Shown one piece after another: positions 39,001 through 45,000 of a stretch of DNA of 64,000 bases (positions are counted from its first letter, which is position 1; the number at the start of each line of letters is the position of its first letter). The position numbers were made by a program. Where the stretch lies: assembly GCF_057098645.1 (NCBI RefSeq), contig NZ_CM169472.1, one strand, 5' to 3'.

Positions 39001-42000
39001 GCGCGACCGTTTACAGGCGGGTGATCCTGATACGTTGCTGGGCCTTCCGGTCGAATATCTGGAGTTTATGCCTGATAACGTTATTGCCCTGGGTGACTTC
39101 AAACGCGGTTACTACATTGTTGATCACGAAACAGGTGTTCGCACCAGACCGGACAACCTGACAGAACCAGGATTCATCAAAATTTTCACGCAAAAATATT
39201 TAGGCGGTGGCGTGGTGGATTCGAACGCGATCAAGATTCTGGAACTGCCGGAAGACGACGATTAACAGCATACAGAAGGGGCTTAAAAGCCCCTTTAGTG
39301 TTTTATGGGTGAAAAAATTATGAAGAGTATGGAAATCCGGTCATCGGAAATCACCACCAGCGCCAGCAACACGCTTACAGGCTACGTTGTTCGCTGGGAT
39401 AACCTTTCTGATCTGCTATGGGGTGAGTTTTACGAAAAATTCCAGCGGGGAGCGTTTACTGAATGGCTTGCGGCGGGTAATGACGTTCGCGGCCTGTATG
39501 AGCATGACCACAGCATGTTACTGGGGCGCACCCGTTCCGGCACGCTGAAACTGGAAGAGGACGAAACAGGGTTACGCTTTGAACTGACCCCACCGGATAC
39601 CAGTACAGGGCGCGACGTTATCGAACTGGTTAAGCGTGGGGACATCTCGGGGATGAGCTTTGGCTTTCGCTCCCGTAAGGATGTATGGGATACCACAACA
39701 GATCCATGCGTGCGCACCGTGCTGGTGGCGGAACTGTACGAAATTACCGTTACATCGGTACCGGCTTACCCCGATTCCGGCGTGGAGCTGGCCCGCCGTT
39801 CCCTGTATGAGCAGCACCCCGAAAAAATGCCGCGTGCGGATAATCGCCGCTGGTGGGCGGATTTAGCGGGGGTGTGATATGTGGCCTTTCAGAAGAAAAA
39901 AAGAGCAGCGCAGCATGACGCTTGATGAGTTTATGGCGCTGGCTGGCACATCGAACACGGGGGCGGGTGAGTACGTATCATCGGGGACAGCGGAATCACT
40001 GCCCGCCGTCATGAACGCCGTCACGGTCATCTCTGAGGCGGTGGCTACCATGCCGTGTTACCTGTACCTGGTACGCAATGAGAAGGGGAAGGAGGCCCGA
40101 GAGTGGCTTGATTCTCATCCGGTCGATCACATCCTCAACGAGCGCCCGAACGCGTGGCAGACTCCCTACCAGTTTAAGCGAATGATGATCCGCCACTGCC
40201 TGTTAAACGGTAATGCTTATGCGGTGATTCAGTGGGGGCGTGATGGTTTTCCGGTGGCTTTACATCCTTACCCGCCGCAGTCGGTGAACGTGGAGCAGAC
40301 AGGCGAACACAACTGGCGCTACTGCATCACTGACGCCTACACCGGAAACACCCGCAACTATTTACCGTGGGAGGTTCTCCACCTTCGTTACTCCACGGAT
40401 GACGGTTTTATGGGGCGCTCACCTGTAACCATCTGCCGCGAATCGCTGGGGCTTGGGCTGGCCCAACAACGCCACGGCGCGAGCGTGATGCGTGATGGCA
40501 TGATGGCGGCAGGGGTTATCACGTCAGGCGAATGGCTGGACGGCGTGAAGGGCAAACAGGCATTAGCCGCACTGGAACGCTACAAAGGGGCCAGAAACGC
40601 CGGAAAAACGCCCATCCTTGAAGGGGGTATGAGCTATCAGCAGCTGGGCATGAGTAATCAGGATGCTGAATGGCTGGCCTCCCGTCGCTTCACCATTGAA
40701 GACATCGCCCGAATGTTCAACGTCTCGCCGATTTTTTTGCAGGAATACAGCAACAGCACCTACAGCAATTTCAGCGAGGCAAGCCGCGCATTTCTCACCA
40801 TGACGATGCGCCCGTGGCTGGCGAACTTTGAGCAGCAGATAAAAAACGCCCTGCTGGTGGCCTCGCCTGTACCTGGTATCCGGTATCAGGTGGAGTTTGA
40901 CAGCGCGGACCTGTTACGGGCCACACCTGGCGAACGCTTTGCCACCTATGAACGCGGCATCAAATCCGGCGTTATGTGCCCGAACGAAGCCCGCGAACGT
41001 GAAGGGCTGTCCCCGCGTGATGGTGGTGATGAGTTCAGCCAGGCATGGAAACAGGAAGTAAAAATCAGCGAGGGAGAAAAACCGGAATGAACATAGGGCG
41101 ACTGCGTGACAGGGTAACGATTCAGACCCTGAAACAGACCAGGGATATAACCGGCGAAATACTCGAAACGTGGGAGGACGGTCACACACTCTGGGCAAGC
41201 GTGAACATGATCAGCAGCAAGGAGGCCATTTCATCGGGTGCAGAGCTGGCGATTGGTACCGTAAGGATCTGGATACGGTACCGGAAGGACATCAACGCCA
41301 CCAGCCGGATAAAGGTCAGTACGGGGCCGCTGGCGGGGCGTGTACTGAATATCATCGGGCAGCCGCTGCCGGATGCCGCCAGGACACGCCTTGAAATTCT
41401 TTGTCGTGAGGGCGCGGAAAAATGACAGAAGAACTTATCACCCTGGAAGAAGTGAAACTCCATTGCCGCATCGATGGCGACGAGGAAGACCAGTTAATCA
41501 GCGGATACATTGCCGCATCGCTTGAGGCGTGCCAGATACATATAGGCAGGCGCTTTGATGACGGGCTGGAGTTCACGCCAGCCATAAAGATTGGCTGCAT
41601 GATGTTTATCGCTCACCTGTACGAGAATCGCCAGCTGGTAGCGGATAACGCAAAAACGCGCGTACCCATGACGATTGGCGCGCTCTGGACGGCTTACCGT
41701 GATGTGGGGGTGTACTGATGCCGTGGCAACCATTAAGACGATGCACAGAACCAGGCTGTAACAGGCGCGTGAAGTCCGGCAAGTGTGAGGAGCACAGGCG
41801 GGCGGCATGGCGTGCAGAGGATGCCAGACGAGGACACCGCCGCGCGCGTGGGTACTCCAGACAGTGGGACAAATACCGCGCCATGTATCTGAGTAAAAAC
41901 CCGTTATGCGTGCGATGCCTTGAGAAGGGGATATATACGCCCGCCGTGGTGGTGGATCACATTATCCCGATTAATGGCGGTGATGATGTTCTCTTCTGGC

Positions 42001-45000
42001 CCGAATGGAACCATCAACCATTGTGCCAGGCGTGTCATAACCAGAAAACGAAATGGCTTGATCCGGCAACAAAAAGCAAGCGTGCCGCAGGTGGATTTCA
42101 TGAAGAGGAAGAACGGGCCGCTAACCGCAATAACTGGATGTATGACGCTGATGAATGAGCGGGAACAAAACCGCCTTATCCGTGGACTTATAAGGCAGCG
42201 TGACGCATGGAAGACACAGGAAACAGGGCATAAAGATAAAGCGTCAGGACGCGCAGAACGCATCACAGCGAAGCGATTAACCGACCGTGACCGCGAGGTT
42301 ATGGAATGTTTCCGCAATCGCTGATGAGGCTGTATGACGGGGTGGGGGGCGTTTTCAGGACAAACCCGACCCCGCCGGGCACCGAACGCCTCCTCAAATT
42401 TTTATGCACGGGAATTTTTTGAAAAATAATCTGACGAAAAATAAGCATGGCAAGACCACCGAAAGCCCCCGCCTACCTGGATGATATCGCCGTGAAGCAG
42501 TGGCGGGAAAAATCGCGGCAGCTTGCGGAACGGGGAGACCTGACCCCCGCCGACTGGAGCAATCTGGAACTGTATTGCGTCAACTACTCCATTTACCGGA
42601 AAGCCGTTGCAGACCTTGCGGCGCGCGGGTTCAGCATTGTTAACAGTCAGGGCGGCGAGAGCAGAAACCCCGCATTAAGCGCAAAATCCGACGCTGAAAG
42701 AGTGATGATAAAAATGGCCTCCTTGCTCGGTTTTGACCCGATAAGCCGCCGTAAAAATCCACCGGAAACAGAAGAAGAGGACGAGCTTGACCGCCTGGAA
42801 TAAGTACGCAGAAGACGTAAAAACGGGCAAAATTCCGGCCTGTAAACGGTTAAAACAGGCTGTTAAACGGTACTTTTCGGACCTTAAAAGCCCCCTTTAC
42901 ACGTTCGATCGTGAGGTTGTGGAGCGGTTTATTGCCTTTTCCAGGGTGTGCCCGCACGTAAAAGGACCGATGCGTGGCAGACCCATTGAGCTGGAGCCGT
43001 GGCAGCAGTTCGCCTTTGCGTGCATCCTCGGCTTTAAGGTTAAGGCCACCGGACGGCGCAAATACACGAGCGCCTTTATCGAAGTGCCGCGCAAAAATGC
43101 GAAATCCACGACCGCCGCGATTCTGGCTAACTGGTTTCTGATTATGGAGAACGGTCAGCAGGATATCTACACCGCAGCGGTGAGCCGTGACCAGGCGCGG
43201 ATCGTGTTTGATGATGCGCGTCAGATGTGCCTTTTATCCCGACCGTTACGCAGGCGGGTGAATATTCAGGCGCATAAGGTGATACACCCGAAAAGCAACA
43301 GCCTGTTAAAGCCGCTGGCAGCAAAAGCGGCAACCATCGAGGGGACAAACCCCAGTCTTTCCATCGTGGACGAATACCACCTACACCCCGATAACGGCGT
43401 TTATTCCGCGCTTGAGCTGGGGATGGGCGCACGTCCCGAAGGGCTGTTATTTGCCATTACCACATCGGGCAGTAACGTCGTTTCAGCCTGTAAACAGCAC
43501 TATGATTATTGCTGCCAGATCCTGGACGGCGAAGAGGTCAACGATTCAATTTTTGTACTGATTTACGAACTGGACGACGAAAACGAGGTTGATGATCCGG
43601 CGATGTGGATAAAGGCGAACCCTAATATTGATGTTTCCGTGGATCGTGAAAAACTGGCCTCAACCATCCAGAAAGCGCGGGGTATTCCGTCGCAGTGGGT
43701 GGAGATGATGACAAAGCGATTTAATATCTGGTGTCAGGGGACTACCCCGTGGATGGGTAATGGTGCATGGGCTGAGTGTGCCGGAACGTTCACGGAGGAA
43801 GATTTACACGGTCAGGAGTGTTACGCGGGGCTGGACTTATCATCAACCAGCGATATTTCCAGCGTATGCTATGCCTTTCCGGTCGGTAAAACCATTATGC
43901 TGGTTTCCCGTCATTATCTGCCGGAGTTCCAGCTACAGAACCCCGCCAATAAAAACCGCGCTGTCTATCGTCAGTGGGCTAAAGCAGGCTGGATACGCAC
44001 AACGCCTGGCGACTGCATTGATTACGACCGGATCAGAGATGACATCATGCAGGACGCGGAGAAATTTAATATCAGGCTGGTGGGCTTTGATACGTGGAAC
44101 GCCACGCATCTCAGAACGCAATTACAGGGGGCAGGTTTTGAGGTGGAGCCGTTCCCGCAAACCTACCTCAGATTCAGTCCGGCGGCGAAATCGTTCGAAG
44201 TTTTTGTTAACCGCAGGGTGATTGTGCATCGTGGCGATCCGGTGTTGTCCTGGTCGATGAGTAACGTCGTGATGCAGAGTGACGCGAACGCCAATATCAA
44301 GCCGAACAAGAAAAAATCACCGAACAAGATAGACCCGAGCGTGGCGGCGCTGATGGCGTTTGGTACATTCCAGGCAGAGCATGAGGATTTTGCTTTTGAT
44401 ATAAGCGACAGCCACCGCCAGAAACTGGAAGAATTTAGCGGGGTGTAATGAGGTCAGCAGCATGACAGAAGCCGAAATAACGGGATTAATCCGCCGCGTT
44501 GCCGGAATCAGCCAGCAGGCTGACGAACAGGCCACGCAGCCGGACAGCGTGACAGCCGAAAACTATGCGCGTGTTGTTGCTGAGGTGATGCGCCGTGATG
44601 GTATAGAACTTAATGGCGTGGATATGCGCAACATACGAACCAGAGTTCTTTAGTTGCTGGCCTACCGTCGCCGCGTGGAGATGTATCGGGAGAAGGAGAA
44701 AATAACGTACCACTGGAAGAAGCCGGAGCGGTTGCGGCGGTAACTGGTTGATATTCCCGACGGCCCAAAAATGGGTTGGCTACACCCCTCACAACTACGA
44801 CATTTTCGCAGTTTAATTAATGGTCAGCTTAATCGCTAACCCGCTGATATTTTAGGAAACCTCAATTTGAGGAAGTCGGCGCGGTAACTTGCTGAACTTT
44901 AAGCAAAGCGCAAAATTGCGCTTGCTGAATAATCATTATGATTACGCAGATGATTAAGGAATGACCGAAGGCGGAAATTCGCCTGTGGTTAATGGGGGAG

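Follow-up and report, generated by a model that had tools for sequence, protein, structure and literature searches.

The stretch of DNA analyzed herein (64,000 nt, NCBI RefSeq assembly GCF_057098645.1, contig NZ_CM169472.1; hereafter the window) harbors an integrated element that, judging from its genes, is a phage satellite of the capsid-forming phage-inducible chromosomal island (cf-PICI) type, and this study concerns its packaging genes and the putative cohesive-end (cos) site that lies among them. The open reading frame (ORF) list and the protein family searches confirmed the HNH endonuclease, small terminase (terS) and large terminase (terL) genes named in an earlier note on this DNA (41718-42803). 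The HNH gene (41718-42158, + strand, 146 aa) was assigned to the terminase-associated, gp74-like kind (PF01844, E=1.7e-8; phrog_144, E=1.1e-44), and its product matched the structure database entry PDB 5h0m (E=2e-15) and was 39% identical to gp74 of HK97 (E=3e-19), the HNH protein that stimulates terminase cleavage at cos. Its stop codon is overlapped by the start of an arginine-rich ORF of 57 aa (ATGAATGA; 42151-42324, + strand; phrog_3173, E=6.2e-37, full length), which is followed by a non-coding gap of 122 nt (42325-42446). Contrary to the earlier note, the HNH gene thus does not stand directly beside terS.

The terS gene (42447-42803, + strand, 118 aa; PF05119, E=1.3e-23; phrog_83, E=2.6e-39) encodes a small terminase of the P27 family, matching PF05119 (Terminase_4) over profile positions 2-97 of 98 with a score of 83.7 bits against a cut-off of 24.7, and the protein was 100% identical to TerS of many other E. 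coli islands. By sequence it was not of the HK97 gp1 kind, as BLASTP revealed no similarity between the two (E=2.4); gp1 itself matches no Pfam family. The five best PDB matches of an AlphaFold2 model of TerS (predicted local distance difference test score, pLDDT, 70.7) were nevertheless all HK97 small terminase, and these weak matches (E=0.09-0.7, template modelling (TM) score ~0.5) suggested that the modeled protein may share its fold. The start of terL (42787-44448, + strand, 553 aa; PF03354 and PF20441; phrog_9, E=1.7e-179) overlaps the end of terS, and the encoded large terminase, with ATPase and nuclease domains, was homologous to HK97 gp2 (27% identity, E=2e-47) and to the HK97 TerL structure (PDB 6z6d, E=4e-42). 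The HNH, TerS and TerL proteins were all of full length. The ORF after terL (44462-44653, + strand, 63 aa) matched phrog_1561 (E=1.8e-36) at profile positions 1-63 of 93; its counterparts in FORC_042 and MBT-5 are 93 aa long, and the shorter form may represent a premature stop or a variant.

These packaging genes stand at the end of an island of ~14.3 kb (31111-45447, + strand), whose limits were set where the match to relatives at other sites starts and stops. The island comprises, in order, int, alpA, unknowns, primase/helicase, ssb, a perC-like gene, capsid, protease, portal, Hc1, Ad1, HNH, the small ORF, the putative cos, terS, terL and another small ORF. Its tyrosine integrase (31265-32515, + strand; PF00589, PF13356) is accompanied by an AlpA-like excisionase/regulator (phrog_2790), a RepA-type primase/helicase (PF13481, phrog_2850), SSB and a PerC-like activator. 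The capsid module (38063-41718, + strand; PF05065, PF04586, PF04860, PF05521, PF05135; phrog_25, phrog_40) consists of the major capsid protein (38063-39265, + strand), prohead protease (39305-39877, + strand), portal (39879-41090, + strand), head closure protein Hc1 (41045-41425, + strand) and head-tail adaptor Ad1 (41422-41718, + strand). Pfam and PHROG searches matched no tail or lysis family among the island ORFs, and none is annotated in the relatives. Because this gene set and layout, namely a size within ~10-18 kb, the integrase, regulation and replication modules, all 8 packaging genes in the published order, and neither lysis genes nor a complete tail module, fit the published definition of cf-PICIs, the element is best identified from its sequence as a cf-PICI of the EcCIEDL933 kind, that is, a phage satellite and not an HK97-like phage. 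EcCIEDL933 is the prototype (Alqurainy et al., bioRxiv 10.1101/2022.09.08.507074); its transfer needs the whole packaging module apart from one hypothetical gene, only tails are taken from the helper, and both helper induction and the small capsids that take helper tails were demonstrated.

Islands covering at least 80% of this one were found in 165 complete E. coli genomes, with the same gene set in the RefSeq annotation. Megablast of the region against the phage collection gave no nucleotide match, and relatives emerged at the protein level only. The 57-aa ORF, labeled a hypothetical protein in RefSeq relatives, was found by tblastn in 16 of 24 relatives and was not detected by this search in the Xenorhabdus, Aeromonas, Citrobacter, Erwinia typographi and Pasteurella islands. 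Possibly it corresponds to 'hypothetical gene 1792' of EcCIEDL933, the loss of which strongly reduced transfer. Within the island, a 389-aa ORF of odd, low-complexity composition (33126-34295) covers a stretch without alignment to the island of FORC_042 (33684-34302) and probably reflects the replacement of an accessory segment, not a genuine gene; the opposite strand carries a YlcI/YnfO-like ORF at 33686-33883 (phrog_949).

The gap between the 57-aa ORF and terS had been proposed in the earlier note as a GC-rich candidate for cos. As for its composition, only the left part was GC-rich: the GC fraction was 0.71 at 42337-42395 and 0.255 at 42396-42446, so that the whole gap (0.50) did not differ from the background (0.49-0.51). 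To define its conservation, relatives were retrieved by the TerS protein and not by a DNA motif, one genome per species was kept, and the Pasteurella element Pmp8 and an EDL933-derived fragment were added. The resulting gap alignment of 25 elements from ~20 genera, including Escherichia, Klebsiella, Aeromonas, Pectobacterium, Citrobacter, Erwinia, Xenorhabdus, Serratia and Pasteurella, revealed two conserved blocks with a variable spacer between them. Block 1 (42339-42364), a G-run plus GGGGTGGGGGGCGTTTTCAGGACAAA, exhibited a mean pairwise identity of 0.77, the spacer (42365-42378) 0.41, and block 2 (42379-42429; GCACCGAACGCCTCCTCAAATTTTTATGCACGGGAATTTTTTGAAAAATAA), which is preserved from Escherichia to Aeromonas, Xenorhabdus and Pasteurella, 0.84. 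The segment after the stop of the 57-aa ORF and the leader before the terS start gave 0.39 and 0.51, respectively, and the three terS codon positions in the same set 0.85, 0.89 and 0.52. Constraint on both blocks thus equals that on codon positions 1 and 2 of a well-conserved protein, while their surroundings drift at the synonymous rate; this conservation is far above chance or neutral drift and reflects strong selection on the gap as DNA.

Three independent observations on relatives indicate one spot within block 2. The first was provided by a metagenome contig of cf-PICI size (IMGVR_UViG_3300022664_000095, 15,518 nt), in which the genes run terS, terL, ..., int, ..., capsid, portal, HNH, a permutation that packaged DNA would be expected to show. 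This contig begins with CTCAAATTTT (in longer form, CTCAAATTTTTACGCACGG) at the base homologous to 42393 and ends with ...GGGGTGGGGGAGGTTTTCAGGACAAAACCCAAGCCGCAAGGCAC, the final letters of which are GGCAC, at the base homologous to 42382. In the integrated relatives examined, GGCAC and CTCAAA are separated by a fixed 10 nt, e.g. CGCCCGCCCC (9 nt in a few Xenorhabdus elements), and the contig lacks exactly those 10 nt. Such a deficit fits end repair that removes a 3' overhang of 10 nt, while a 5' overhang is disfavored because its fill-in would have duplicated the 10 nt, and a circle would have been assembled through. Secondly, contig JAEHJW020008655.1 (locus L250) stops at CAAATTTTTACGC, 2 nt inside the same point; this locus boundary was read as the end of a contig, since other contigs are represented by pieces that begin or end where the contig itself does.

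The third observation came from vB_KppS-Ant (LR881103.1), an assembly of particle DNA (Nextera XT library, 16.5 kb) that is >99% identical to a region of Klebsiella pneumoniae DSM 30104. Its linear record ends with GTTTTCAGGAC and starts 22 nt before terS, and it lacks 69 nt that are present in the integrated copy of strain ATCC 13883 and span the predicted cut site. A transposase library is expected to miss some tens of bases at either physical terminus. Its genes and sequence identity show vB_KppS-Ant to be the cf-PICI of K. pneumoniae DSM 30104, KpCIDSM30104, for which He et al. (bioRxiv 10.1101/2025.02.11.637232) report that the packaged DNA is joined into concatemers by its cohesive cos ends. 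The record and its paper describe vB_KppS-Ant as a filamentous, possibly single-stranded DNA phage of a new genus, and a tape measure protein is the annotation given to its 765-aa ORF downstream of terL. Other candidates for end data were discarded: the sequences of loci L194 and L199, considered as contig ends near the motif, both stop at terS and are not contig ends, and Klebsiella phage P12620-1 (PQ569648.1, 106.5 kb), in which the cf-PICI terS-terL pair (89144-92458) is joined to unrelated DNA at terS codon 2, was uninformative and is probably a chimeric assembly. A scan with the G-variant of the motif gave no further contig ends.

Transferred to the window, the ends of the metagenome contig predict nicks at 42392/42393 on the top strand and 42382/42383 on the bottom strand, and together with the HK97 register they point to a 10-nt cohesive end with a 3' overhang, CGAACGCCTC, at 42383-42392. 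The cut would thus fall at the GC-to-AT transition of the gap, 54 nt before the terS start (49 nt in HK97). In HK97, the record of which begins at the nick, the ends are 10-nt 3' overhangs and the minimal TerS site lies at +15 to +29 (CTAACCCGATTTTTT; PMC11331095). The corresponding segment in the window, 42407-42421 (CACGGGAATTTTTTG, +15 to +29 from the top-strand nick), is by its position the presumed TerS binding site, and it is the most conserved part of block 2. Close relatives in E. coli differ in the 10-mer (CGAACGCCTC, CGACCGCCTC, CGACCGCCCC) but are nearly invariant in the segment downstream of it. Block 2 would therefore hold both the cut site and the presumed TerS site, and block 1 is proposed to serve as a termination-side or nuclease-positioning element. 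The 14-mer CACCGAACGCCTCC at the core of the putative cos (42380-42393) recurs with 86% identity (CACCGAAAGCCCCC) 77 nt downstream, in the first terS codons (42457-42470), which may be chance or a second recognition element.

The landmarks of the gap were also in good agreement with those of HK97 cos. The G-run ends 42 nt before the nick in HK97 and 43 nt before the predicted nick here (at 42349), the T7 run of HK97 starts at +24 and the T-run of the window at +23 (42415), and the distance from the end of the G-run to the start of the T-run is 65 nt in both; in addition, HK97 has ACGC at +12 to +15 where the window has ATGC. Placed by these landmarks, the HK97 nick corresponds to 42391/42392, and the contig ends gave 42392/42393. 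An anchored, ungapped comparison of the window with HK97 cos yielded 46 identities in 122 positions versus 30.1 +/- 5.1 in shuffles (p ~0.002).

On these grounds we consider it quite likely that the region is the packaging end of a cf-PICI, that the gap contains its cos site, and that packaging follows the mechanism outlined here. Upon induction of a helper phage, the island would excise and replicate, as do members of its family. Its P27-family TerS would then bind in the right, AT-rich half of the gap, with CACGGGAATTTTTTG (42407-42421) as the probable site, and position the TerL nuclease of the island, aided by the island's HNH protein, for staggered nicks at 42392/42393 and 42382/42383, the product being the 10-nt 3' cohesive end CGAACGCCTC. 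The DNA would be pumped rightwards, terS first, into the small capsids of the island until the next cos is reached, and the G-run block (42339-42364) would lie on the side that enters the capsid last. The exact nicks in this island and the division of labor between TerL and HNH are likewise predictions, drawn from the relatives and from HK97. The suggestion of HK97-like cos packaging made in the earlier note was thus retained insofar as a cos-type, HNH-assisted reaction with homologs of gp2 and gp74 is concerned, and had to be amended in that the element is a cf-PICI with a P27-family TerS; its placement of cos within 42325-42446 was supported by the two conserved blocks and by the ends of relatives in the homologous gap.

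The alternative that best survived is that the island is a decayed remnant, whose genes and cos remain recognizable although it no longer excises or packages. The flanks lend it some weight. The left one (26408-31046) is the potA-pepT-roxA integration site, as in FORC_042 (where phoQ follows), and the right one (45442-47559) is the truncated 5' end of tqsA followed by mdtJI and ydgD, as in MBT-5, in which the island interrupts tqsA; with the roxA site on the left and the tqsA site on the right, attL and attR may not match. The two sites carry the island in opposite orientations relative to the standard gene order of E. coli K-12, and because the flanks come from two such sites, the window probably spans the breakpoint of a large inversion that arose by recombination between two island copies. 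Mismatched flanks, however, would affect excision and not the identity of the cos site. The shortened ORF after terL also fits decay, but HNH, TerS and TerL have their full length, many E. coli islands share an identical TerS, and the cos blocks are intact. We therefore regard a decayed remnant as rather unlikely.

It could also be supposed that the conserved blocks govern the transcription or translation of terS-terL, as a late promoter, a terminator or a leader structure, and that cos lies elsewhere. The blocks do lie just upstream of terS, and the ribosome-binding region is contained in the last 17 nt of the gap. Nevertheless, a scan of the gap found neither a terminator nor, on the coding strand, a sigma-70-like promoter, the only promoter-like match being a weak one on the opposite strand, and single-strand folding of the gap was no stronger than that of shuffles (z = -0.40). 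A 10-bp inverted repeat (42338-42347 and 42365-42374; CGGGGTGGGG and CCCGACCCCG) joins the G-run to the variable spacer, and some relatives (L090, L093) keep the complementarity with changed bases; it resembled a hairpin but was dropped as a core feature, since its spacer arm is unconserved and it is absent from the functional EDL933 and Klebsiella islands. Furthermore, the leader next to the start codon, at 0.51, is, like the spacers (0.39-0.41), poorly conserved, and the contig and assembly ends lie inside block 2. Purely regulatory blocks are accordingly very unlikely, though a dual role, as cos and as regulatory signals, is possible.

Headful packaging, with initiation at a pac site and non-specific cutting by the terminase, would leave the gap conserved without its being a defined end. 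Many small-terminase systems, some satellites included, use pac sites (introduction to the cf-PICI paper), and the end data come from relatives and not from the particles of this element. Against this, TerL and HNH are homologous to the HK97 cos enzymes, and a permuted genome would have assembled as a circle and not as a linear contig with a deficit of 10 nt at a conserved motif. There, too, lie the second contig end and the gap of the particle assembly, and a close relative is reported to form concatemers through cohesive ends. The ends of relatives were thus defined and fixed at one conserved site between HNH and terS rather than permuted and terminally redundant; the earlier note had named permuted ends, or ends mapping elsewhere, as what would tell against cos, and the available ends map to the homologous gap. 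Headful packaging is for these reasons still less probable than a regulatory role. Least credible of all is that the HNH protein is a free-standing homing endonuclease placed beside the terminase genes by chance and without a role in packaging: such enzymes are common in phage genomes and often sit at module boundaries (PMC10448857), but the gene showed no sporadic presence or absence among collinear relatives, occurring immediately upstream of terS in the same position in 24/24 of them (~20 genera, 53-76% identity), which points to vertical conservation and not to sporadic insertion, and its product is homologous to the cos-cleavage stimulator gp74 and has its counterpart in the packaging module of EcCIEDL933, all genes of which bar one hypothetical are required for transfer.

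Returning to the cos site of a cf-PICI as the preferred interpretation, several points weigh against it. All end data stem from relatives with 81-84% TerS identity or from an uncharacterized metagenome sample; a single contig shows both ends, so that the length and the 3' polarity of the overhang depend on one assembly and the analogy with HK97, and the end status of the L250 boundary was itself deduced. The 10-mer is variable within the family (identity 0.77). Smith-Waterman local alignment of HK97 cos with the gap was no better than with shuffles, significance being reached by the anchored ungapped comparison alone. At the sequence level TerS does not resemble HK97 gp1, and the fold match, obtained with a model of pLDDT 70.7, is weak. 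Lastly, the hybrid flanks make excision of the island uncertain.

In the remainder of the window, a lambdoid prophage tail module (1-15211) lies ~16 kb to the left of the satellite and includes the tape measure protein (2143-5385), the tip attachment protein J (9649-13176) and a tail fibre (13901-15211). Adjoining these tail genes is cargo resembling type III secretion effectors (15698-26044): a SopA-like E3 ligase with pentapeptide repeats (15698-18046), a DUF4765 protein of 1133 aa (18637-22038) and a leucine-rich-repeat protein (24683-26044, - strand).

In annotation, the region should be assigned to a phage satellite, as its packaging module with the cos site, and not to a prophage. The arrangement is ordinary for the cf-PICI family and belongs to a known system; what is added here is a cos map at the nucleotide level and a layout common to HK97 and to phages with P27-family TerS, which fills in a detail of the described system without overturning the current understanding. 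The predicted site provides a substrate for testing self-recognition by the cf-PICI terminase, the contribution of HNH and the retargeting of packaging by a swap of ~15 bp. Searches for cf-PICIs in genomes, and for their packaged linear form in viromes, could also make use of the conserved motif. As for published data, no cos position or end sequence, nor the layout shared with HK97, was found in the accessible text of the cf-PICI literature, the figures and supplements of which, or other papers, may contain one.

Compared with HK97, the island has homologous TerL and HNH proteins and a cos between the HNH gene and terS, with a predicted 10-nt 3' overhang and a presumed TerS site in the same +15 to +29 window. 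It differs in that its TerS belongs to another sequence family (P27, PF05119), in its reversed gene order, the head genes preceding hnh-terS-terL, and in that it makes no tails. The agreement with the characterized cf-PICIs EcCIEDL933 and KpCIDSM30104 was closer: the order int, alpA, replication genes, capsid, protease, portal, connectors, hnh, terS, terL and the conserved cos blocks are the same, TerS is 81-84% and TerL 81% identical, and all are of one size class (14.3 kb versus 15.4 and 16.5 kb) and lack tail or lysis genes. The island has CGAACGCCTC as its cos 10-mer where they have CGCCCGCCCC or CACCCGCCCC, a T-run of 6 instead of 7 Ts, other accessory genes and hybrid integration flanks.

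Among true phages, Clostridium phage PhiS63, which has a TerS of the P27 family and 3' cohesive ends determined by experiment (PMC3442830), exhibits a G-run ~37 nt before an 11-nt cohesive end followed by CACAAGATTTTTTG at an offset similar to that of the presumed TerS site here, although the overhang is unrelated in sequence to the island 10-mer. Acinetobacter phage AbIPP1, the record of which has no defined ends, shows clear versions of both blocks upstream of terS, GGGGGAGGGTGGGTTTTGAC and then AATGACCGCCCCCTAAAGTACATTTTTACG. Both phages have a TerS 36-38% identical to that of the island and an HNH gene at the right genome end, and both, unlike the island, are complete 33-kb phages with tail and lysis genes. 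Because they show the same layout, this type of site extends to true phages. Whether the enterobacterial cf-PICI cos can be generalized as a two-part site of ~90 bp that follows HK97 cos geometry (G-run ending ~43 nt upstream, 3' overhang of 10 nt, TerS site at +15 to +29) despite the other TerS family, and whose layout reaches the P27-TerS phages of Acinetobacter and Clostridium, is in our judgment evenly balanced. If it can, the failure of satellite and helper terminases to package one another's DNA would be explained by differences restricted to the 10-mer and to the segment at +15 to +29. Classical Gram-negative PICIs of the EcCICFT073 type and the satellite P4 are, like the island, helper-dependent elements bearing an integrase with AlpA and primase modules; they, however, carry the helper's cos or rely on a helper TerS redirected by Rpp, and use helper capsids, whereas the island carries a capsid, terminase, HNH and cos of its own.

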